A stretch of DNA of 62,611 bases, counting the filler, from Rhabdomonas costata (Eukaryota), in NCBI GenBank assembly GCA_019059605.1. It is 22 parts of 22 records of this genome, joined end to end, with 100 filler letters (N's around TTAATTAATTAA, not from the genome) between each part and the next. Parts side by side here need not be neighbours in the genome. Positions count along the whole stretch, not along the records: positions 28,529 to 31,280 come from JAHMHO010002157.1; 21 more parts are not named here. The stretch is one strand, 5' to 3'. The first letter of the stretch is position 1. Each line of letters starts with the position of its first letter. Below are positions 5,503-62,463 of the stretch, in pieces. A model generated the notes under the pieces. That model had not been told where the DNA came from. It did no database searches and saw nothing but the letters and a program-made list of their open reading frames with translations. A program made the translations under genes and the position numbers.

Positions 5503-6654
5503 CTGGTCACGAACAGCCACAGTAACAGCGCAACCATGCAAGCATGCAAGAAGTATGAGAACCAAACCAAGGAACTATGCCCTGTGACGTTTTTTCTCCC
5601 ACCCCNNNNNNNNNNNNNNNNNNNNNNNNNNNNNNNNNNNNNNNNNNNNTTAATTAATTAANNNNNNNNNNNNNNNNNNNNNNNNNNNNNNNNNNNNNNN
5701 NNNNNGTTGTGGGGTAGAAGCCAGCAACACCTCGCAGGGTGGTGGTGCGGTCCCAGGGGGGGACCAGCGGCAGAAGCCGAGGTTTCTGAGAAGGAAAGAG
5801 CGAATGAGAGAGAGGAAGCAAGAGGGAGCCATGTGCGGACGCAAGGGTGGGGACCACAGATTATTACAACGGAAGCCCCGCGAGCTAACCAGGGTATCAG
5901 GTTTATGAGCCTATTTGTGGGTGCCCTGCCGTCGGACTTGTGTGTGTTTGTGCTGACTTTCGAGAACGCGTTTTTGTCGAGGAACTTTGTGAATTCTATG
6001 TTTCCTCCACCGGGGTGACGAAGGGCGGCGGCTTTGACGTGTGCACTGGCAAGGCCTCAGTTTGCACTTTCGTTGCATCGCGAGTCTTCTGGAAACTGAG
6101 CAGAAGCGACAAGTTGCCGACAGTTTGCCGCAGCTCGTTTTATGAAAGCAAACTCTCATTTTGCATCCGGTGCGATGCATCTTAGCGGAAAGGGTTGTCA
6201 ATCGGTTTGACAACGTTATACAAGTTAACGTTGTTAAACACTGAGGAACAAATCTCGGGACTGTTGGGTTGGTGTTTGTGGGTGGACTTTTGTGCCCTTG
6301 CCCGGGATAAACGGTTCCCAGGGGAGTACAGTTTAATGGGTCGGGACTGTATAAGCCAGCGCCGCGGCCGCGGGAGCGGTCCCCCGCGTTGCAGCGCTGG
6401 GGGTTCTTGGGCTAAGTTTCGCACCTGACCGGTTATCGGATCCCTCTCAATGTGCTGAACGGTCTTTTAAGAGGTCCTAAATGCATCCATCCTGAAGGAC
6501 CCTCCACCGAAACACTCTGCCGAATTCTTTCCTCCGCAGGGCTTTTTGTTTTTCCTTTGCCCCTTTCCTGTACTTTGCCCGGAAGGGTTTTTTTTCGCCT
6601 CGGGTGCCCGTCCCGTCACCCTGGCTTCCCTCCCGCCCGGCGTGGCCTAGACCA

Positions 6655-28528: not shown

Positions 28529-28648
28529 TCAGCGTTTTTCATAATGGAATTTAACAACCACCATACCACACATGTTTTAACGTTTGCTAGCAAACGTTAA
28601 AACATGTGTGGTATGGTGGTTGTTAAATTCCATTATGAAAAACGCTGA
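28529..28648. repeat. Perfect 120-bp palindrome at contig start (probable artefact)
   Basis: Arms 28529-28588 and 28589-28648 are exact reverse complements, centred on GCTAGC. Confidence 0.88.
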
Positions 28649-29115
28649 CAAATACGGCTTTGACTTATGCCCTGCGATGGAAAATGAGGTTTCCATATGT
28701 GAGTGGTCTGTATTTTTGTTCAACGCGTGGAGTTTTGCACCAATTTTGGTCTATCCTCTGATGCTTGGGAGCGTTGTGCAAATGGTGGCAAGGCAATATT
28801 CCTCTTTATCCCGCTCGAGTGACCGGCGGGGTGACTGCGATGAGGTGGGCGGAGTGGTACCGGGCCCACTCCCGTTAAAGATCTTTCTCAGAATGAATTG
28901 AAATGGTTAACTCCAGTGCATCCACGAGCATGGTGGGGTGGACGGTGAGGGGCTAGGGAATGTCGGAACCTTGGAAGTGCGGTTTTGTATAGGAAGACGG
29001 ATGTATCCGATTTTCATGACTGAAGGAATCGGAACAATGAGAAAAAAGAAAAAAGAGGGCGACACTCCAATTTCCCCAAGGTATCAGTAACCACGGGTCA
29101 ATGCGTTTTGCTCAG

Positions 29116-30423
29116 GGATGTGGAGAAAAAGCACCTGTATGATGGGCGTGCCACCTATCGGGCATCTTCGGCACAACCGGCCCATTCCTGTTTGTTGCGT
29201 CGCCCTCTCAGTCTCCCATCGCTGGTGTGCAAGTACAAGTACGAACTGCTGGTGATCATCCTGTTTGTTGCCCTGGCCACCACCAACCATCGGGCTTCGA
29301 TTGTCTTTCTGGTCATGGAGGTGCTCTTCGACCTCAGCCTCGTGCTCGCACTGCTGTTCAAGACCCCCCGCTTCCGGCACTTCGGGCTTGCCTTCAGCTG
29401 CTTCCTCCTCAACCGATTCATCTCGCTCGCGATGCCCACGGCGGTTCTGGTGTACGCGATAGTTTGGAAGGAGTTTGGCACGGAGCCCTGGGTGACGTAC
29501 ACTGTGGTGGTCGTGGACTATGTCGTCACCGTGTTCGGGTTCTTCGTGTTTTTCGAGTACTTCATGCCTGTGCGGGTGAGGGCTGCGACGGAGCAGGACC
29601 TGGAGGGGCTGCGGGAGATCGAGCGGGTGGCCTTCCCAGAGGAGGACCAGCAGGCCTCCGAGGAGAGCATCTTGAAGCGGATCCGCACCGCGCCGGGCAC
29701 GGTGCTGATCGCGGAGCTGTTCTCTGGGGAGGCCGTGGGGTCGCTGTACCTGCGGCCCGTGAACCTGGCGGAGACGGAGGCCCATCCGCCCTCGTGGGAG
29801 GCCGTGGCCAACGGCTCGGACTTCACGTACCAGCCCGGGCACCACGACGCGCTGTACGCTGTGGGGCTGCAGGGCAAGCCCGCGTCGTGCAAGGGGGTGT
29901 CGACGTTCCTGCTGAGCGAGGCGATGGCGTGTCTGCTGCGGATGAAGCTGAAGGCCATGCTTGGTGGGCTGCGAGTGCCGCAGTACCACTCACACCCCGA
30001 GATGCCTTTGCAGGAATGAAACAGCCTCCCTCCCCCCATTTTTCGGCTCCTGGTTTTGTTCTTTTCACCGTCGTTTTATGTCTTCTTTGTTTGTTTCCTT
30101 ATGCTTATTGAAGTTTTGGTTGTATGAGGACGTAGGTGTCTGTGGGCAGAGATGATTTGCTTGGAATGCTCATTCAGGAGTACGTGCACTCTGGCCAGGA
30201 GCGGCTTCTGGGTGCGGTTTTGCAATCCCTGCCGCAGTGCACCCGGCCCACTGTGGTGTGCGGGGTGGAGGGATACTGGCCCACCGACAAGGACAGCCTG
30301 GGGTGCGCCGCGCTGGTGGCCTTCCACAACCCGATCCATGGGTGGCCCCAGGTGCTGCAGCACATGGTGGCCAGCTCCGTGGTTCGCGTGGCGCAATGCG
30401 CCAAGTACCTAAGCAAAGCCTAA
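29116..30423 (+). CDS. Membrane protein with TLC-like transmembrane region fused to a GNAT acetyltransferase domain; 5' partial
   Basis: Four hydrophobic segments (..VFLVMEVLFDLSL..FSCFLLNRFISLAMP..) precede GNAT motifs VRVRAATEQDLEGLREIERVAFPEE..ASEESILKRI. After an intron (30014-30177) it reads EYV..LL....VEGYWPTDKDSLGCAALVAFHNP. A possible in-frame GC-AG intron lies at 29146-29211. The 3' end (stop at 30423 or a further GT donor) is uncertain. Confidence 0.75.
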
Positions 30424-33049
30424 AATCGGGGCCCCTCGCACTGCGAGTCCGCATGCCATTTTCCGTGTTCTGCTTCGCGGTCTGTTTGGTGGGACTTACA
30501 TTTTGTGAGTGCTCAGCATGGATGACGCTCATGCCCCTCCGGAAATGGGTGTGTCAAGTGCTCTCTCCGCTCTTCATTGCTTCCAGCGGGGTCGGTATCC
30601 CCAAAGAGCTCTTGCAATTTGTGAGCGCTCCGGGGGGAAGACCACACCCGCCGTACTTCTTTCTGGTTTTTTGTGTGGGCGCTGTGTTTGCCCTTGTACC
30701 ATACTGAACAACCGCCGAGCACGTTTCCAACACAAGAGTGTAGGCATTTTTTGACGGACGTTTTTGTTCATGGCTTGGGTTGCAATTGTACTATTGCATC
30801 CTTCCAGAACTTGAATGGTCACCTGCTGCTGTGAGATGCGCGTTGCCCAATATCCTGCCCCATCCCTGCTGGATAATACCCAATAATACCCACATTTACA
30901 TACTCATACCCTCCACACTCTTCACAGGCTTTAATTTTCTGCGTACTTGCCTTCTGGTGAGTGCTGCAAGCGTTGGCGTGTGCCCCATCCGTGTTCTGCT
31001 ATCCCGAGGGGCTTGTACATTTCCTTATCGCGTACCTTTTCCACTCAGTACGCGAAAACACCCGCGAACATTCGCATGCTTGAAAAGAGGGCTTCGGGTC
31101 TTGTGTCGCAGGCCTGGTTGTATTTTAGCAACTTTTCTTTTGAAGAATGGTATTCGGCGCTGTTGTAATACACGTTGGCATATGACCTGCTATCACGCCA
31201 CTCAGTCAGAAATATCCCATTACTCCGCAAATCTGGATGAAGTATCCCTTCTTTGTGTACGCTTGAGATGCCGCGCACTTNNNNNNNNNNNNNNNNNNNN
31301 NNNNNNNNNNNNNNNNNNNNNNNNTTAATTAATTAANNNNNNNNNNNNNNNNNNNNNNNNNNNNNNNNNNNNNNNNNNNNTTTGTTGGCTTAGTCACTTC
31401 AATGTTCCATTGTATGGAGGAAGTTCTGTGTAAAACATTTTATGGTAATCAAAAATGATGTATTAGAGCAAAAAGTACGTTTCTGCAAGATGGGAAGTGT
31501 TCCCCACTTCCATTTTTAAAGCATTTGCTTGATTGTTGCGTTTATCCGCTGGAAGAAGTCGTCAATGTGTTTCCGAAAGTTCTGACATTGATATATTAAG
31601 AGTCGCAATCATAAATAATTGACATTATGAGTAAGTGGTACCTCAGCACATTCTCGAGAAAATGTTCTGCAATATCAACAGCTGAAGATCAACTCCGATT
31701 GTGATGGAATCTTTGCTGCTCAAAAAGTAACTGTAAGTGATCGACATGTCGAATTTATGTAGTAGGTGCAACAGTCGAATCTTACTATCGTCTTTGCAAT
31801 CGTGTGCAGATAACTTATCAATTGCATTTAATAGCTTTAAAGATTTTTTAATGCTTGCTTGTTTAGCTCTAGACTTTAGACGACCAAATATCATTCGTTT
31901 GAAAGATTATTGCTCACTTCAAGAGTACCGAGCAACTGTGTACAAGATAAACGGGTTGTTGGTACTTGGAAAGACAAGGACAACTTATAAAATGTGATGC
32001 GTCTTCAGATTGTGATGTGATTAAGATGTGTATTCGAATCATCAAAGGCTCCATTTTTCGAGAGAATAATGGTCCGTGTGGTTGCTATTGTTGCAAATTT
32101 AGTAATTGGTATGTGGTAAAAACAATACATTACGATAAACCTCAAACTTTATTGACATTTTAAGATAGTCTAAGATCAAGCGCATTTTATATGTTTGTTG
32201 TGTACCACGCTTCACGTTTAGGTGTTTATTTGAGATGCTTTCGCTTTATGACATTCTGGATATAGTTGGAAGTGATAAGAAACGAGAACATCCGAGACGT
32301 CCACTTCAGTAATTCTCGTGAGTGATATTTTGTTATTCTTCTTAGATGGTGTTAGGGAGATACACAAAGAAAGAAATGCAATGTGCAACTCGATTTTCGA
32401 TTAAGAATGGAACAAGTTTTGTAAACTACATTCTGTAGTCGTCACATGACTTGGAGGATGAGTTCCTGGTGTTATTTGAGTGTGTACTATAAAAACTGAC
32501 TTCCGCGTATAATTTTGGTGAAGTAGGTCACTTTGAAAAACGCAAAATACATCTTTTTTGTTGGGACGTTTACAGTGCATTTGCCATACAAAATGACATC
32601 ACTTTCTACTCAAAGTAACCAAATTATGTTTGCAAAGACGTTTTTTGATAATCTGATAAAACCATCACTATAGGTGCAAATTCAAAACGTACCTTGTCTT
32701 CGACAGTATCAGGAGTGTCAAAGACAGTGTAGTATATCAACACATGTCACTATTTTTTGTAAAGCAAGAGTACACTTGCTCCAAATTATCTTGGTGAAAA
32801 TCGGATTCTTAAAGCTTCCAAAAACTCATCAGGCTGTTTCCAAACTTCGTAACTTGGTAGATTTTTGACATCTGGTAGATTCGGTTATCTTGATGCTTTG
32901 ATGCAGGTTACGTTTCAGTTTTATAGTTTGTAGACCTGGAGTGAAGCCCACGTGTGAGTTTCTCATGAAACACATAGTGAAACTCCTTTATCAGTCTAGT
33001 TACACTTTCTAGTACCGGTACCGTTGCTACCGGATTTACACAGCAAGTG

Positions 33050-36635: not shown

Positions 36636-37415
36636 CTGTCCGAAGAGGGAGTCAGAAGACGCACAGACGCACAGAGAAAAGAGCGAAACATCGATACCAA
36701 GGACGGGGCTTCTTGCCCTGCGATGTGCCCCTGACAAACAATGCTGAAGCTACCTGTCACCGGAAGCCTGCGGTCCGGCAAAAATAACAGCAAAGCAAAT
36801 CATCGAATATAGCGAAGAAATATGTCAAATTATAGAAATCACTCAAGGACAAGACGAAGCACGCCCGGGGTTTTCTTATATCAATGGAACTTCCCAAGCA
36901 TGCGTGGCGGTAATGATGATGCCCACCAAAATCAAACGGTTCCCACGAAATCACAGGAAGAGATACGTGAAAACAAAACCNNNNNNNNNNNNNNNNNNNN
37001 NNNNNNNNNNNNNNNNNNNNNNNNTTAATTAATTAANNNNNNNNNNNNNNNNNNNNNNNNNNNNNNNNNNNNNNNNNNNNGTTGGGGGGTTGATGAGGCA
37101 AACCTCAGGTATATCTCATTCCTCTCCACCCCAAAACCACATACTAAACCACTTCATAAGCATTACCCTATTTTACCTCGTTTTCCGACAGCAGGTGCCC
37201 TTGAGTTCGCTCAGGGCATGCATGAAAACATCATCAGAAAGCTGATAAGCCCCCTCCCCCGACTACAACGTCGGAGGAAAGCGGCAGAAGCCTACACTGG
37301 AAAACTTAGACTACACATCGAGATAGACATGCAACTGTAAATAACCAAGCACGCACGAAAAAAATCCACGTACACACCCATCAAGCACACGATGACCAAC
37401 AACACAGGGGCATAC

Positions 37416-39164
37416 CAGTGTGGTAGATGTAATGGGAGCAGTACGCGACAATCCCGAAAAGCACCAGCTTACGGCAGATCAACCACACCACGGACATCAC
37501 CACAATGCCGAAGGTCAGGAACCTCTGCGCGAACAGGTGCCGGGGCTTCCCAGTTACGGGGTCCACCGCATATTTCTGGATCATCCGACCGATGTACAGC
37601 GCAAAGTCGGAGAAATCCTGAGAAAGAAAAACGTTCCAAAGAGATGTCCTCACTGCTCACAAAGTCAGAAAGCAGAACATTACATCATTACATCCCAAGG
37701 GGGAGCCGTGGGTCCCCACGCTGCGGGGGGTCTAATTAATTACTCAACTCCAAAACAGTCTCAGGTCAGGATTTGAGATGACAACTACTGACGGTGCGGT
37801 GCATGGGCAATGGACCAAAAACAGTTCGCAATCCTAAATTTCGCAAAGGAAGCAGCGCAGACGGAGAGGTAAGAAGAGACTCGAGCTGAGGAAGGTGGAA
37901 CGCGGGAGGCTCGCCAGAGTAAGGACAAAAATGGATGAGCAGGCCCACCAAACCCCAATACGCAAGCTGCACTTCAGCGTTGAGAGAAGCTGGTTAAAAG
38001 ATGAAAATGCTCATATAAAAATGCTCACGTGGTTTAGGAGGGGGGCATCACTGGTAACCCCCCCCCCTCAACTTTTGATTGGGCCAGAGAGAAGAGTCAG
38101 TGGAGCTAATCTCGACCTGCTCGAGCATCACCATCAGCCCAATGCGGTGCAGGTGGGCTACCAAGGCACCGTAAATCAGGATCATTGAGAGGAAGTGGTG
38201 GGCGATCATCAGCAGCACGTCCTTCCGGTTAGCATCATACAGGAGGATTTCAGCGAGGCCGTGGATGTACCACGCCAGTTGAGCAAAGAAGAAGAAGTGG
38301 ACCGGGCCCAGGTTGGGGTCCTGACAGCTGAAATTTAGCAGGAGGTTGAGGAACATCACCAAAGGTTGTGGGGAGCACATCGAAAGGAAAGACGGAATTA
38401 AAACTTTTCAGCGTTTCCTACTAGTGCCCCCGCCCCCGCCAACAGTCAAAATGTCTAAATTCCCGCGGCTCCATATCAATCTTTAAACAGGAGCGATCTA
38501 CCGCCATCTAGTTCTGGGCACCAAGTACAGTGGTTCAGCGCCCCGGTCATTTTCTTAGCAGCGACGAGAAGAGGGCAAGAGGGTCACAAAAAACACTTCA
38601 GCAACGCCACAGTGGTTGAGCTGGAATTATGCTTTACGCTGCAGGAGGGCTAAGGAAGCGTGGTCCACAAAGAAGTCCCGATGATGCAACGGACCGCAGG
38701 TGCGTCGGGATACGTGGAATACGTCCGATTCAGTCCGTTTATCATGTCCTCCCGCCTTTTCCACCACTTCCGGGGGGTTGGGCAGTGGGTCATAATTTCC
38801 AGGATGCCGACAATGCTTCCCTCAACAGCTTTTCCGTCTGCAAGGAAGTGCACACAACCGCATACCCATCCCGGACTAAGAGGCTCAGGCTGAACCCCGC
38901 GGGGGAGTAATACATGATGACCGCACCCCACACGGAGGTGAGCAGGTAGTAGAGGCCGTGCCAGATGTACTTCGAAACTTTTTCCACCGCCTCCTCCTGA
39001 CGGGGGTCGGGCAGGATCGCCCGGGCTCGTTGCTGGAAGGAGCTCCACAGAGCGCTGCGGATGACCCAGATCACCACGGTCAGCAGGCTCACTGTCGTCC
39101 AATTGATGGTGGGCACGGGAACCCCCGCACACTCAACGTAGTGGTCGGGATAAATTGCGCCCAT
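37416..39164 (-). CDS. Ceramide synthase (LAG1/CerS, TLC domain), first 4 exons
   Basis: Exons 39164-38866, 38755-38695, 38320-38117 and 37617-37416 (alternative donor at 37473), all GT-AG. The Lag1p motif is present: RKDVLLMIAHHFLSMILI...GLMVMLEQDFSD. Confidence 0.88.
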
Positions 39165-48472: not shown

Positions 48473-48828
48473 CTATTATAAATTTCTCTCATAACAATAA
48501 AAACATCAATATTTTGTTCCTGTTTTAGAAATGTTAATAGTTTTATAATGTCATTGTATAATTCTTTCTTGATGTTGAGAAAAAAGAAATTTTCAAAAAT
48601 AATACATCTTCTCCTACATCTTGAATTCTCATGAAATGAGTTGTCTAAATACATAAAATGTGGTAATTTTAATAATATACTATCACAGCAATTTATATAT
48701 TCAGTGTACCTATTCTCAATATCTGCTAAATAAACTACATAAATAAAGTCATACACATGTGTGAAAAGATGCATTTTAATGAATCTTGTTTTTCCTGAAT
48801 TTTTCTTACCTACTAACATATAGAACAT
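48473..48828 (-). CDS. A32/FtsK-HerA-like packaging ATPase homologue, degenerate; 3' partial
   Basis: N-terminal Walker A MLVGKKNSGKT, then YDFIYVV, a Walker B position CIIFEN and a ..NIDVFIV strand, the layout of A32-type ATPases. Confidence 0.65.
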
Positions 48829-48885
48829 TACTATATATTAGTATAATAATAAGCAAATGTAATATACCAAAACATATTAAAACTC

Positions 48886-48919
48886 AGAAGCATGTTCAGT
48901 TCTTGGAAAACATGGTTCT
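48886..48919 (-). terminator. Hairpin downstream of the protease stop
   Basis: agaa-g-catgtt / aacatg-g-ttct, 10 of 11 pairs, about 20 nt past the stop codon. Confidence 0.35.
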
Positions 48920-48938
48920 AAACGACATCAACACATCG

Positions 48939-49367
48939 CTAGCCGAACTTTCTCATCAGGATTAAGAAGCTCATAGATCTTGCGCCACAGCTTGATTCGT
49001 TCATTGACTGATCTCTATCAGTCTTATTTGCGTTTATCATTCGTTTATTCTTCCAGTATTTTGATAATTCATTTTTATTTCTTTTGAATGAATCATAATA
49101 ATATAATTTTCCATTTAATTTATAGAAACCAACCCAATGACCATATTTATTAGCTGATCTAGATGAATCAGTGTTTAGAATGAAGCACTGATTATTTCTT
49201 ATATATTTCGGGAATTCATTGCTACTACCAGTTTTTATATAATCAGCACCGAAAAGTTCATAACCTAATTTGTCTAATTGTATGTTGGTTGTACTCGCAC
49301 TACCTATTATATCTTCAACCATCATTAATGCTTGTTCGTAATACTTTAAAATGTTATACTTACTCAT
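48939..49367 (-). CDS. Adenain-like (clan CE) maturation cysteine protease, 142 aa
   Basis: Starts at ATG 49367. CFILNTD......GHWVGF....LYYYDSF....DQ....SCG gives His-Asp-Gln-Cys in the order of adenovirus/Polinton proteases. Confidence 0.9.
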   Translation of the reverse strand: MSKYNILKYYEQALMMVEDIIGSASTTNIQLDKLGYELFGADYIKTGSSNEFPKYIRNNQCFILNTDSSRSANKYGHWVGFYKLNGKLYYYDSFKRNKNELSKYWKNKRMINANKTDRDQSMNESSCGARSMSFLILMRKFG

Positions 49368-49371
49368 TTGT

Positions 49372-49379
49372 ATACTATT
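49372..49379 (-). promoter_or_regulatory. Candidate viral promoter motif AATAGTATA upstream of the protease (second copy at 49743-49751)
   Basis: On the minus strand: tAATAGTATAcaaATG (protease) and cAATAGTATAaaacaaaaATG (core-like protein). A related tatATAGTAATG precedes the ATPase. Confidence 0.5.
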
Positions 49380-49383
49380 AAAT

Positions 49384-49418
49384 AAGATTTTAGAATAACA
49401 AGATTGTTCTAAAATCTT
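49384..49418 (-). terminator. Perfect 12-bp hairpin right after the core-protein stop
   Basis: aagattttagaa (49384-49395) / ttctaaaatctt (49407-49418). The stop codon is at 49423-49425. Confidence 0.55.
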
Positions 49419-49422
49419 GTGT

Positions 49423-49734
49423 TTAAAACATAACACGCATCCCTCCTAATGTACTACGAGGGCGTCTGTGTGTAGTTGTCGTGCGTCGTCTGTATGTCCT
49501 GCGGGTTGATAAAGTTGAACGAGGGCGTCTACCCTGTCCACTGAGTTTGTAGCTAGAACCACGTAAAGTACGTCTGCGACGGGCTCCAGTTCCTAATAAA
49601 GCACTAGCAATGCGTTTAACAAGTGTAGTTTTAGATGGTCCACGACCAGTCCTACGAACTGGTCGCCGTCTAACCCCAAACCCAATCACACGATGCCCAA
49701 CCTTTGCTAATTGATAGCTAATACTATTCACCAT
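49423..49734 (-). CDS. Arginine-rich putative virion core / DNA-condensing protein (adenovirus pVII/pX-like character), 103 aa
   Basis: 25 Arg + 4 Lys and no Asp or Glu. Carries LLGT|G and LSGQ|G, plus near-sites VIGF|G and TLGG|M. Sits between the capsid and protease genes. Confidence 0.75.
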   Translation of the reverse strand: MVNSISYQLAKVGHRVIGFGVRRRPVRRTGRGPSKTTLVKRIASALLGTGARRRRTLRGSSYKLSGQGRRPRSTLSTRRTYRRRTTTTHRRPRSTLGGMRVMF

Positions 49735-49782
49735 TTTTGTTTTATACTATTGCAAAAGAAAATAATTTTATACACATCTTAC

Positions 49783-51222
49783 TTATTCAATAAGAGGAGG
49801 TGCACTAGATGGTATCATATTTATAACCTCTGCATATTCATTGTATTCAAATGTTAGATAAGAATCATAGAGACCAAGAATGATGATATTAGTTGGTATT
49901 CCTAGTTGACCATTTAGATCCACACGAACACTGAAAAGATTACTTATATCATTCAGAGAAGCTTTATTCTTAAACACAAACACTGGGTTGCACTGCCACT
50001 CACTATATGAAAGAAGAGCCCCACAAGGCGTTCTGAGAGCGTCGCACATGATGCAATAATCTTGATAGCAGCGATATAAATCATTTGTGTTGGTTGATCC
50101 AGTAGTTCCGTCAGTTTGTAGACTATATGATTCTTGAGGATAAATACACGTTCCATGTTTAACTTGAATTTGCTTAATAAGCGTAACTGCATCGGTTGTA
50201 TTTTTTGCTTCACAAACTGCAGGATTTCCAGACGCATCAACATAACCACAGCTGAAATCAGTGGGGCTGTAATGAGGATATAGGGAAGGATTCACATTAA
50301 AAGCAACGATAATATGAGAAACACGCCCGCCAGTATCAAACGTTCCAGTAACAGTTGTAGTAGATGAGTTATTGCTGAGATTAGCGATAACTGGTGAAAA
50401 CTGTTTCATATGATAGGTTGCTTTGATACTACGTGGCACGTAGGACTTACCGATATAGCACCTATTTAAGTATAGCTTCATGTCCAACATTGAGACGTTA
50501 ATAGTATTATTAGAAAATCCACTGTTTTTATTTGTGACTGTGTATGTTCCTAATACTGATCCAACTGAACCAACTACTTGTATAAGGTTTCTGTACCACG
50601 ATTGTGAAACGGAAAAAATCAAATCTACTTTCTTGCCAACTCCAAAGTGAAGTAATTCATCACAGTAAAATAGAGGAATCGGAATTTGAATGTTGAGACG
50701 ATTTATATTTTTCTTATCAAAGTTGTACATATGATTTTTTAGTGCCCATATCATTCGTTTACTAAAAAGACCAGAAAATGCCGCCATATTTTCCGCTGCA
50801 ACTCCAAGACTAGTACCAAGTTTGTAATAATTATCATAAAGCACATTTACACTATCATCTTGATCCTCTTGACTCATTACTTTGATTTTTGAAGTTGAGT
50901 TAACTGTGTCTTGTTCCAATTTAGATTCGAAAAGCATTCTATATAAAGTTGACGTTGTACCTGCAAACTGATAATTGTTAACATCAGTAGAACTAATCAC
51001 ACACTTGATTGTATCGAAGATTGCACCTAACGGGTTTTGTGTTAGGTGAGGGATTGATATACCTTGAGGAGCAGCACGTGTACCATTATTAATAATTGGT
51101 TCAAGTGTCGTCTGAGTTCCATTTTCTCGAACTTGTGTGATTTGAAGTTGAACTGTCAGATAACTGTTTTTTCCATTATATACTATATCTTCGGGTTGGT
51201 CTATTGTGAACTTAATATTGTT
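49783..51222 (-). CDS. Double jelly-roll major capsid protein, Polinton/PLV-type; 5' partial (at least 479 aa)
   Basis: The frame stays open upstream of the ORF-track start to the contig edge. IKFTIDQPEDIVYNGKNSYLTVQLQI and LTQNPLGAIFDTIKCVIS match the Polinton MCP N-terminal pattern. Further motifs: DMKLYL..C, SHIIVAF, IQVKHG..IYP..Y, Y..YQDY, W..NPVFVF and a terminal IIILGLYD..L. Confidence 0.82.
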   Translation of the reverse strand, partial: NNIKFTIDQPEDIVYNGKNSYLTVQLQITQVRENGTQTTLEPIINNGTRAAPQGISIPHLTQNPLGAIFDTIKCVISSTDVNNYQFAGTTSTLYRMLFESKLEQDTVNSTSKIKVMSQEDQDDSVNVLYDNYYKLGTSLGVAAENMAAFSGLFSKRMIWALKNHMYNFDKKNINRLNIQIPIPLFYCDELLHFGVGKKVDLIFSVSQSWYRNLIQVVGSVGSVLGTYTVTNKNSGFSNNTINVSMLDMKLYLNRCYIGKSYVPRSIKATYHMKQFSPVIANLSNNSSTTTVTGTFDTGGRVSHIIVAFNVNPSLYPHYSPTDFSCGYVDASGNPAVCEAKNTTDAVTLIKQIQVKHGTCIYPQESYSLQTDGTTGSTNTNDLYRCYQDYCIMCDALRTPCGALLSYSEWQCNPVFVFKNKASLNDISNLFSVRVDLNGQLGIPTNIIILGLYDSYLTFEYNEYAEVINMIPSSAPPLIE

Positions 51223-59766: not shown

Positions 59767-60105
59767 NNNNNNNNNNNNNNNNNNNNNNNNNNNNNNNNNN
59801 NNNNNNNNNNTTAATTAATTAANNNNNNNNNNNNNNNNNNNNNNNNNNNNNNNNNNNNNNNNNNNNTTTTTGTGTTTCCCGCCAGTCAGCACATTCGAAC
59901 TCCGTAGGACATGCTCTGCCTTCAGTGAGTTGCTCCGCAAAAGCTTGTGCGGAATACGCTCGTGCTATATTTTCGTCGTGAACCCGAATCCTAGCGTAGC
60001 TGGAAACCCACCCAGAGGTGGGTTTTTGCATATTGGTTGGTTTTCGGCGAATAGTCTATCCGCTCTCCATCAGTGTGCCTTCACGATCACACCTGTCTGC
60101 AATAG

Positions 60106-62463
60106 GGAGGTCCCTGTGCCCTATGATGTGGTGCGGGAGGTGGACGTCCCGGTGCCCGTGGAGCACACTGTGGAGCAGTGCGTGCCCGTGCCCGTCCCTG
60201 TGGAGCGCAGGGTGCGCGAGGAGGTCGCCGTGCCGTACCCCGTCACGAAGTGCGTGGACGTGCCCCAGCCTTACCCCGTGGAACGGGTTGTCGAGTGCCC
60301 GGTATGGGTGTCTATGTCTGATGTTTGCGTGCGGGGCTACGCACGCCGCTAGAACACGCACCATCAGATAGAAACATCCCCTGGTCAACTCCGCGAAAGG
60401 GTGCCAATCCATCTACACAAATCAGATTGCCTGACGTTCGTGCCTTTGGAGCCAAGTTATTCGCGTTGGACAGGAATGAAAAAATTAAGGGGAAAGTAAG
60501 GACATTCCAAATAATCGTGAATACTCTGGGAGAGGGGGTACTCTTCTCTGCTATTTTGATGGTTGTTGGGCAGAAACAGACGAAACTCTGGGGGAGACAT
60601 GACCCCAGGAGTGGTTGTCAGTGGAAGTGGACTATTTTCGGGTCTTTTTAGGACAGCCTATCATAATATCGGGGGACAGGACGAGACGAGACTTTCCATG
60701 TGCGAGATCTTGAGGTATTGTCCTTTTTTTTGCAGCGATGACCCCTTTTTTATCGATTTTATTCCTGGTTACCAACCCCCTTCTCTATTTGTCCGGCGAG
60801 GGGACCCGCGCGCGCCGCCCCCCACCCCAAAGGTGCCGTACCCCGTGGAGAAGGTGGTGACCCGGACCTGCCCCGTGCCCGTGCCCAAAGTGGTGGAGCG
60901 CACCGTGGACTGCCCTGTGGCCGTGCCCTGCCCACAGACCGTGGAGTGCCCGTACCCCGTCACGAAGTGCGTCGAGGTGCCCGAGCCCTGCGTGGTGGAC
61001 CGGGTGCGTGTACCCATATGTGTGTGTCCCGTCTATTGCTGTGAGCGTGTGGTGTGCTCGTGTCCTTGTGTGTCTGTGCTTGTGTGCGGCCTTTTCGGAG
61101 CCGTGAGCCACGTGTTGCTGAAGAACTGTGGAGAACCGGGGGGTGAGGACTCTCTCACCGCACAGCGAGGCCTGCCCGTCAGGCGAGGTGGCCTGGGGAA
61201 GTTCTCAAGCTCTTTGACCCACCCACCCCTACCCAATCTCCTCACGGAAGCTGCAACTCTTTCAATCCACGGCGCACGGGCCGGGACGCTACTTGTTGAG
61301 CGGTGGTGCATGCAAGGGAATCAGGACGGAGGCTCCTATTCCTAAACTTCCGGTTGAACGCAGTGTAGGGTGTGTCTGTAAACAAAGGACGCTCCGTTTG
61401 TAAACGAAGGGCCTGTGTTCACATATAGCCGAATAAGGTTGGAGGGTGCCCGCTTTCCGCCGCCCCCGCGCTCCAAGGTGGTCGAGTGCCCTGTCCCATA
61501 CACCGTGTGCAAGACCGTTGAGCGCACCGTGGACTGCCCCGTGGCCTGCCCCGTGCCCTGCACCGTGGCCGTGACGTGCCCCGTGGAGAAGGTGGTCACC
61601 CGTAAAGTCCCGTACACCATCCCAAAGGTTGCAGGCCAGTCAATCCGCGACCCCCCCCCCCCTTCCCAACGAACTCGCATTTTCGTTGTTTGTGCCTGTC
61701 TGGAAAGAAAGAGCCCCTGCAGTAAATTCGGAGGAATCCCTGTAACTCGACACTGCAAGCATGAAGCTGGCATCCGGTAAATATCCTTCCATCCGGCCGC
61801 ATCTGGACGGACTCTCGCATCCGTGTGGACACCGGGATTTCACCCACTTTTTGATACATGGGTTTTGTGACAAAACGCGAACACGTTTTGTCACACTTTT
61901 GACAGATTTTTGGGAGAAAAAAGTCCTCCCGGTAGTAATGACAGATTTTTGGGAGAAAAAAGTCCTCCCGGTAGTAATCACCCATCTGGATAGTTACATA
62001 CCCAGTTGGACTTTCAAGAAGAGAGATGGAGATGCTTTTCTGAGCCCAAGGATCATGTGCGGATAGGATGAATGCTCGAAAATCAGCGAAACCCAGCAAA
62101 AGATAAAATGAGGCTGGGTTTTTATGTTTTGGAGTTCTTCCCTGTGAAGCCACGGCTGTTGGAAACATTTGGCAAGCGACGAGTATTGACTATTTCCTGA
62201 GTGAGTGAAATACGTGTCTATGGCGGTGTGCTCTTCCCATTGCTCGATTGTTTGCATGTTGCGTGGGGTGGGCATTGGCTTAGGTTGTGGAGAAGACCGT
62301 GACCCGAGTGGTGCCCTGCCCGGTGAAGGTGGTGGTGCAGAAGACCTGCCCCGTGCCCGTGCCCGTGGACTGTGTGCGGTACCGCGACGTGCCTTACCCC
62401 ATTGAGAAGATCGTCGAGAAGATTGTCCACGTGCCCGTCCCGCGCTACGTTCCTGTGAAGCAG
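60106..62463 (+). CDS. Articulin/epiplastin-like pellicle protein, cysteine-rich; 4 internal exons
   Basis: Exons 60106-60301, 60833-61003, 61478-61627 and 62284-62463 are GT-AG and in phase. They carry tandem VPV repeats with acid-base dyads (VPYPVEKVV, VPVPVERRV, VERTVDCPV). Confidence 0.9.
61900..61978. repeat. Exact 39-bp tandem duplication in an articulin intron
   Basis: tgacagatttttgggagaaaaaagtcctcccggtagtaa occurs twice. Confidence 0.85.

Follow-up and report, generated by a model that had tools for sequence, protein, structure and literature searches.

How euglenids excise their nonconventional introns is an unsolved problem, and it is disputed whether their 'intermediate' introns, in which one canonical border is combined with a nonconventional-type fold of the two ends, are transitional forms or accidents (PMC4770533; PMC6221363). 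Here we describe an intron of this kind, 164 nucleotides (nt) long, at positions 30014-30177 of a 62,611-base stretch of DNA, hereafter the window, whose protein matches point to Rhabdomonas costata, a colourless euglenid, or to a very close relative as its source. The intron lies in what reads as a nuclear gene. It begins with GA, ends with AG, and its two ends are complementary in the register that nonconventional introns use.

Nonconventional introns have variable borders. Their ends pair at +4, +5, +6 with -6, -7, -8, as CAG/CTG in 33 of 55 introns; the pairs +5,+6/-8,-7 are always formed and +4/-6 is unpaired in just one of the 55. The first intron base is a purine in 51 of 55, the first base of the downstream exon in all 55, and a pyrimidine ends the upstream exon and the intron in 49 of 55 each (PMC4770533). 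In Milanowski's model these introns have no polypyrimidine tract, bring their ends together in a stable fold, and are excised late, as full-length circles, without the ordinary spliceosome. Knock-in genetics has given a splicing code for Euglena, 5'-N3CDG-/-CH'GN5-6|R, whose signature is carried by 61.2% of the nonconventional introns of Euglena agilis (Nomura 2025; PMC12501133).

Between conventional and nonconventional introns stands the descriptive class of intermediate introns (Canaday 2001; Russell 2005; Milanowski 2014), a further mark of which is that the 5' end is to some degree complementary to U1 snRNA. The fibrillarin intron of Euglena gracilis, with the borders AG|gatc...ggag|GA, fits the nonconventional fold 'very well' (PMC3935182, describing Russell 2005) and was judged a better intermediate (I/N) example than the tubulin cases (PMC3935182). 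The same authors later argued that most 'intermediate' introns belong, as ordinary members, to either of the two types (PMC4770533; PMC6221363). Intron 9 of hsp90 in strain ACOI 323 has GC-AG borders together with a nonconventional fold, and could switch from one type to the other (PMC4770533). The hybrid introns of E. agilis carry both kinds of motif and come to 0.8%; Nomura et al. believe that they go by the noncanonical route (PMC12501133). Where among these does an intron with conventional letters, a dead donor and paired ends belong?

The intron and its host gene

In a search of 1.84 billion representatives, the exon upstream of the intron had its best match in P0001, a 474-residue EukProt protein of Rhabdomonas costata, and a second gene of the window, resembling ceramide synthase, is 100% identical to P0057; these two matches are the ground for naming R. 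costata or a near-identical organism as the source. The matches to R. costata proteins are at 94-100% identity. Because its genome was too fragmented, the species had its proteins predicted from transcriptome data (PMC8219788), and P0001 can thus stand for an mRNA. The features of the locus, the repeat copies, helix arms and stop codon being read directly from the letters, are as follows.

28529-31280 (no strand assigned): the intron-bearing piece, a short contig of 2752 nt
29210-30013 (+): upstream coding exon, ending CCT TTG CAG (PLQ), placed by tblastn with P0001 residues 124-394 at 94% identity, its true 5' end undefined
30011-30015 (+): CAGGA, 5' copy of a direct repeat along which the intron can slide, with six placements
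30014-30177 (+): the 164-nt intron in the placement GA...AG, the only one of the six that ends in AG, with its helix in the nonconventional register
30014-30019 (+): 5' arm GAAUGA, intron positions +1 to +6
30017-30019 (+): in-frame TGA, intron positions +4 to +6
30170-30175 (+): 3' arm UCAUUC, intron positions -8 to -3, followed by AG at 30176-30177
30175-30179 (+): CAGGA, 3' copy of the direct repeat
30178-30423 (+): downstream exon, EYVHSG...KYLSKA and a TAA stop, 81/81 residues identical to P0001

The window consists of 22 pieces of 2745-2755 nt, which are separate short contigs, and all 21 joins between them carry the linker pattern N44-TTAATTAATTAA-N44 (2756-2855, 5606-5705 ... 59767-59866). 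Genes are cut by the ends of the pieces, and pieces that stand side by side are not genomic neighbours. The intron-bearing piece opens with a perfect palindrome (28529-28648), two 60-nt arms that are 100% complementary and follow each other without a spacer; it has the look of an artefact of assembly or amplification and not of biology.

The reading frame of the upstream exon runs at 30002-30019 through ATG CCT TTG CAG GAA TGA, that is MPLQE*, and resumes at 30178 with GAG TAC GTG CAC TCT GGC (EYVHSG), 164 nt after 30013. P0001 continues across this point as ...PEMPLQEYVHSG... (also given as PEMPLQEYVHSGQERLL and as ...HPEMPLQEYVHSGQERLL...). So do its relatives: in the 12-row alignment A1, whose other homologues are metagenomic, bacterial, from Paulinella and from a chytrid, the upstream exon ends at column 435 and the downstream exon starts at column 436, none of the nine other homologues has a gap there, and a stretch PEM.L.E(Y/F) is conserved among the nine at the junction. 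Left in the message, the 164 nt would stop the protein at MPLQE, 81 residues early. An earlier note on this DNA, made from the sequence alone, had proposed that the frame meets this stop and resumes 164 nt later across an intron that no GT or GC donor explains, and had advised aligning transcripts over the junction. The stop and the resumption are in the sequence, and transcriptome-derived P0001 and the homologues lack the 164 nt, which are thus an intron.

The absence of a usual donor was borne out in two ways. Sliding along the CAGGA repeat gives six placements, which begin CAGGAA, AGGAAT, GGAATG, GAATGA, AATGAA and ATGAAA; not one has GT or GC at its start, and only that at 30014-30177 ends in AG. 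From this placement the intron would be cut as CAG|GA...AG|GA. All in-frame GT/GC-AG introns with a donor at 29900-30017 and an acceptor at 30060-30259 were also enumerated, and none of the 41 listed recreates the P0001 join; the canonical upstream donor that, by the earlier note, would overturn its reading was thus looked for among them and not seen. The nearest of these alternatives, GC30010-AG30149 (140 nt, in frame), would give LDDLLGMLIQ instead of LQ; it was rejected as the main form, as it adds nine residues lacking in P0001 and in all homologues.

The product of the gene is a membrane-anchored, weakly GNAT-like protein. Its frame had been called a GNAT frame; the frame itself stands, and the label is a weak one, since the Pfam family Acetyltransf_9 is reached by only two of the 12 aligned family members (best E=0.0036) and by the window protein only at E=0.074. 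The family, a four-helix membrane anchor followed by a GNAT-like part (P0002-P0016), is patchy and consists mostly of unnamed metagenome sequences, the other holders being one Patescibacteria cluster, Paulinella, the chytrid Paraphysoderma and R. costata. A protein word search with the upstream exon among near lengths gave no match, and Rfam at its gathering threshold found no family in the entire window, hence no known RNA in the intron.

Could it be that the GA is never spliced at all? Base 30015 would then be an assembly or amplification error, or the window would hold a silent copy (allele or paralogue), and GT would stand in the copy that is expressed. The upstream exon agrees with P0001 at 232 of 233 positions over residues 161-393, with a single V/A difference, and drops to about 60% identity with a two-residue gap just upstream (29210-29314 against residues 124-160); residues 1-123 are not present in the piece 28529-31280. 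Since near-identity gives way in this manner to divergence and absence, either the gene would have at least two copies or the P0001 transcript would be chimaeric, and the former suits the silent-copy explanation, as do the artefact-like palindrome of 60+60 nt at the head of the piece and the textbook donor, GTATGA, that a T at 30015 would give. Against it, both exons of the window copy are intact and, over residues 161-393 and the whole downstream exon, nearly or fully identical to P0001; a chance error exactly on donor position +2 would be far rarer a priori than, in a euglenid, a genuine noncanonical intron; and RNA-supported non-GT/GC-AG junctions have been reported on 105 R. costata contigs (PMC8219788). 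We regard an error or a silent copy as improbable.

The terminal helix and its register

With the intron at 30014-30177, positions +1 to +6 face -3 to -8 in six Watson-Crick pairs, GAATGA against TCATTC, and the six complementary terminal bases pointed out in the earlier note are confirmed. The core pairs, +4 to +6 with -6 to -8, are U:A, G:C and A:U. How readily would chance produce such ends? Against a background of 56754 segments of 164 nt, drawn at random from the window, the core pairs occur in 968 segments, all six Watson-Crick pairs in the exact register in 14, and any helix of six base pairs inside the terminal 12 nt in 681. Since any G...CAG intron has the pair G+1:C-3 in any case, the other five pairs were counted separately, which gave 62 segments.

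When the intron is folded alone, the helix is part of the minimum-energy fold (P ~0.73). A terminal test, in which the two 10-nt ends are joined as 10 nt + U7 + 10 nt by the method of PMC11170887, where it was used for Euglena gracilis, gave -5.5 kcal/mol for the GA-AG intron and 0.0, -2.7, -1.3 and 0.0 kcal/mol for four GT-AG introns that are complete in the window. The three core pairs are Watson-Crick in none of these four. Two of the controls are verified by P0057 and two are inferred from conserved motifs. Two genes of the window with GT-AG introns are the following.

37414-39164 (-): TLC/ceramide-synthase-like gene, three exons 100% identical to the R. costata protein P0057
456-2066 (+): ubiquitin carboxyl-terminal hydrolase-like gene with the Cys box GNTCFMN and a QQDAQEF box

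The first has complete GT-AG introns at 38865-38328 and 38116-37618 (-) and a third donor, GTATGC, at 37415. Its last exon is missing, because the piece ends there and the pieces are separate contigs; a search of the adjoining one did not find it. In the second the GT-AG introns, at 628-834 and 1010-1887, are inferred, and a donor GTGTGT stands at 2067.

Conventional letters and the junction repeat

Apart from the intron at 30014-30177, all 13 donors in the window start with GT (three verified via P0057, ten inferred from conserved motifs or the ends of open frames), and GT donors were found in 29 of 29 complete R. costata introns from six genes (PMC8219788), which agrees with the earlier description of the genome as otherwise one of GT-AG introns. 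Among these 13, GTATG is the most frequent pentamer (4/13). The donor CAG|GAATG differs from it at +2 only, with the same ATG at +3 to +5, and the intron's 3' end is CAG|G. The intron thus lacks the GT/GC 5' end required of conventional U2-type introns and has their AG 3' end together with a consensus-like donor. Its pyrimidine content at -25 to -4 is 0.59, the two verified GT-AG introns having 0.73 and 0.77 and five inferred acceptors 0.45-0.77. A protein word search with an M16-peptidase-like exon, made for more verified introns, gave no match.

CAGGA does stand at both junctions, as had been seen before; is it the trace of an insertion? Its reading as a target duplication is left unsupported, since four of its five bases are the CAG|G consensus and the transcript-verified GT-AG intron 38116-37618 (-) shows a CAGG repeat from the consensus alone. 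Short junction repeats occur in 84.4% of E. agilis introns (PMC12501133). In the insertion explanation, a miniature inverted-repeat transposable element (MITE) or something like it would have brought CAGG(A) as its target-site duplication and AATGA...TCATT as its terminal inverted repeats, and the intron would have been nonconventional from the start. The layout, CAGG-AATGA...TCATT-CAGG, is indeed that of a direct repeat with inverted ends, the nonconventional introns of euglenids have been proposed to derive from MITEs (PMC3935182; PMC11282704), and in so patchy a gene family introns may be gains. However, MITE-like elements and Introners have many related copies in a genome, and the search for other copies of the intron that had been advised found none within the 62.6-kb window, where the best other match is 19 nt at E=0.01; the CAGG repeat is shared with a verified GT-AG intron; the inverted repeat is just 5-6 base pairs; and an inserted element has no reason to look like conventional sites, as GAATG and CAG|G do. 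A longer repeat across the junctions, ATGC-N5-CAGGA (30163-30179), by which MLIQ would mimic MPLQ, was considered and dropped: by hand count it matches at 11 of 17 positions, and at only 6 of the 12 outside CAGGA, which does not exceed chance. We regard an insertion of this sort as improbable. A dinoflagellate-type GA donor and an Introner were also candidates, and were dropped once the proteins matched Rhabdomonas costata.

Two other pieces of the window deserve mention. The piece 48473-51222 (34% GC) holds a 479-residue open frame at 49783-51222 (-) that reaches the edge of the piece. It has no Pfam or PHROG match, its language-model features lie nearest to viral clusters (Preplasmiviricota, some of them with double-jelly-roll or virophage capsid domains), and it may be a candidate major capsid protein, from a polinton-like virus or a virophage, or else a contaminant. 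A gene at 60106-62463 (+) is built of Val/Pro-rich units in repetition (VPYPVEK..CPVPVP), which bring to mind the articulins of the euglenid pellicle.

Excision of the intron and comparison with known systems

Like the nonconventional introns of Milanowski, the GA-AG intron has no GT/GC donor, its core pairs are in register, and it has a short direct repeat at the junctions; like them also, it has a purine at +1 (G) and at the start of the downstream exon (G). Its ends can be written GAA-TGA ... TCA-TTCAG|G, which reproduces the 3-nt spacer, the 5-nt spacer and the R exon start of the Nomura code. Register, both spacers and both purines come together in only one of the six placements, 30014-30177. 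Unlike nonconventional introns, it has a donor that is conventional-like at +3 to +5.

We tentatively prefer a reading to which we give a little less than an even chance: a T-to-A change at +2 took away the donor of a once-conventional intron, whose excision now follows a helix-guided nonconventional route. The ancestor would have been a conventional GT-AG intron. As read from the sequence, a T at +2 would face the T at -4 as a mismatch, so that the same base change would have destroyed the canonical donor and closed the sole gap in the helix. Excision would now depend on the helix bringing both cut sites together, most likely in a structure-guided nonconventional pathway rather than by ordinary U1/U6 reading of the donor. 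The conventional letters would then be owed to ancestry, and the exact register to the circumstance that only introns pairing in that register would survive the loss of the donor. Ancestry, use of the helix and cutting machinery are what we infer here, whereas the data themselves show an intron that is missing from the mRNA-derived protein, that has no GT/GC donor, and that has the helix in its register.

A number of points weigh against this reading, the weakest parts of which are the letters and the dependence of the helix on context. The intron has TGA/TCA where the Euglena code has CDG/CH'G, in which single changes abolish splicing (PMC12501133), and where 33 of 55 published introns have CAG/CTG. 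Its helix extends outward into the spacers instead of inward: +7/-9 (A/C) and +8/-10 (A/G) do not pair, and Nomura et al. found such inward pairing essential (PMC12501133). The upstream exon and the intron both end in G, not in the pyrimidine usual for nonconventional introns, and an AG 3' end has been called improbable for that type (PMC3935182). The great majority of R. costata introns are conventional, and only seven putative nonconventional introns have been reported (PMC8219788). As to folding, which the earlier note had proposed as a check, the helix of the isolated intron is lost (P ~0) when each flank includes at least 10 nt of exon, where 6-10 kcal/mol would be needed to force it; once the exon flanks are included a competing helix wins, in which 30046-30053 pairs with the 3' junction at 30174-30181. 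The 184 nt from 30004 to 30187 fold worse than shuffles (z = +1.53) and show no end pairing. The value of the terminal test is equalled by 131 of 5000 composition-preserving shuffles and by 384 of 5000 random genomic segments. Finally, P0001, the evidence of splicing, comes from a slightly different copy, so that the evidence for splicing of the window copy itself is indirect.

Several of these points would be expected if the intron, with its rare GA donor, were removed by the spliceosome like any U2-type intron, A at +2 being tolerated given the other good positions (CAG|G.ATG and a CAG|G acceptor) and the helix being coincidental or, at most, a generic aid in drawing the ends together. GA-AG introns are known in other eukaryotes as rare U2-type spliceosomal variants in an otherwise good splice-site context; to our knowledge, the hosts of those introns have no second excision pathway, and no fixed-register pairing of the ends is needed there. 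The present intron has every conventional feature except +2, namely GAATG beside the GTATG of 4/13 donors, the 3' AG and the borders CAG|...|G, and it lacks the CAG/CTG letters and the pyrimidine|purine borders of the other type. It sits in a genome whose introns are nearly all conventional, as the 29 of 29 and 13 of 13 GT donors indicate, and its helix is gone in folds that include the exon flanks. On the other hand, the pairing in register would then be due to chance, at the frequencies given above of 62/56754 for five pairs and 681/56754 for any register; the pyrimidine content is lower than in the two verified introns, yet it lies within the range of the inferred acceptors; and the sole described euglenid GA-AG intron also has a nonconventional fold (PMC3935182). 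We consider a tolerated GA donor possible, though rather unlikely, and return to the helix-guided reading.

A stronger form of that reading is that the intron is in the course of a switch from spliceosomal to nonconventional excision and that the machinery removes it despite its TGA/TCA core, which we think unlikely. If true, the machinery, at least that of this early-branching osmotroph, would read geometry, that is spacers, helix and purine, and not the letters found essential in Euglena. Is geometry alone sufficient? Can a conventional intron be taken over by a second pathway? With its conventional letters, dead donor and helix made in the exact register from the 'wrong' letters, the intron is a compact natural test case for both questions. 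It is a single example of a described class, and alone it leaves the picture unchanged.

As to that class, the intron has one canonical border (the 3' AG) and a nonconventional-type end fold, and belongs with the 'intermediate' introns of Canaday (2001), Russell (2005) and Milanowski (2014), although most I/N introns keep the 5' GT/C and this one keeps the 3' AG instead. As a proxy for complementarity to U1 snRNA, its 5' end has GAATG beside the common donor GTATG. The earlier note's assignment to an intermediate type holds on these two features, and its suggested origin by insertion with target duplication does not. The hybrid introns of E. agilis and intron 9 of hsp90 are alike in that features of both kinds share the same cut sites, and their authors discuss switches of type; they differ in keeping a GT/GC donor and CAG/CTG, neither of which is found here. 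Nearest by organism are the seven putative nonconventional introns of R. costata (PMC8219788), which come from the same or a near-identical species and have transcript-supported non-GT/GC-AG junctions; the window intron may be one of the seven, and thus already listed.

The closest precedent is the fibrillarin intron. It has the same AG|ga...ag|GA borders, an end fold in the nonconventional register and a euglenid host, and it differs in gene and species, the present host being a primary osmotroph; the two are compared by description only, the letters here being TGA/TCA. The intron at 30014-30177 is the second GA-AG case in euglenids, after that of fibrillarin, the only one found described in the literature consulted.

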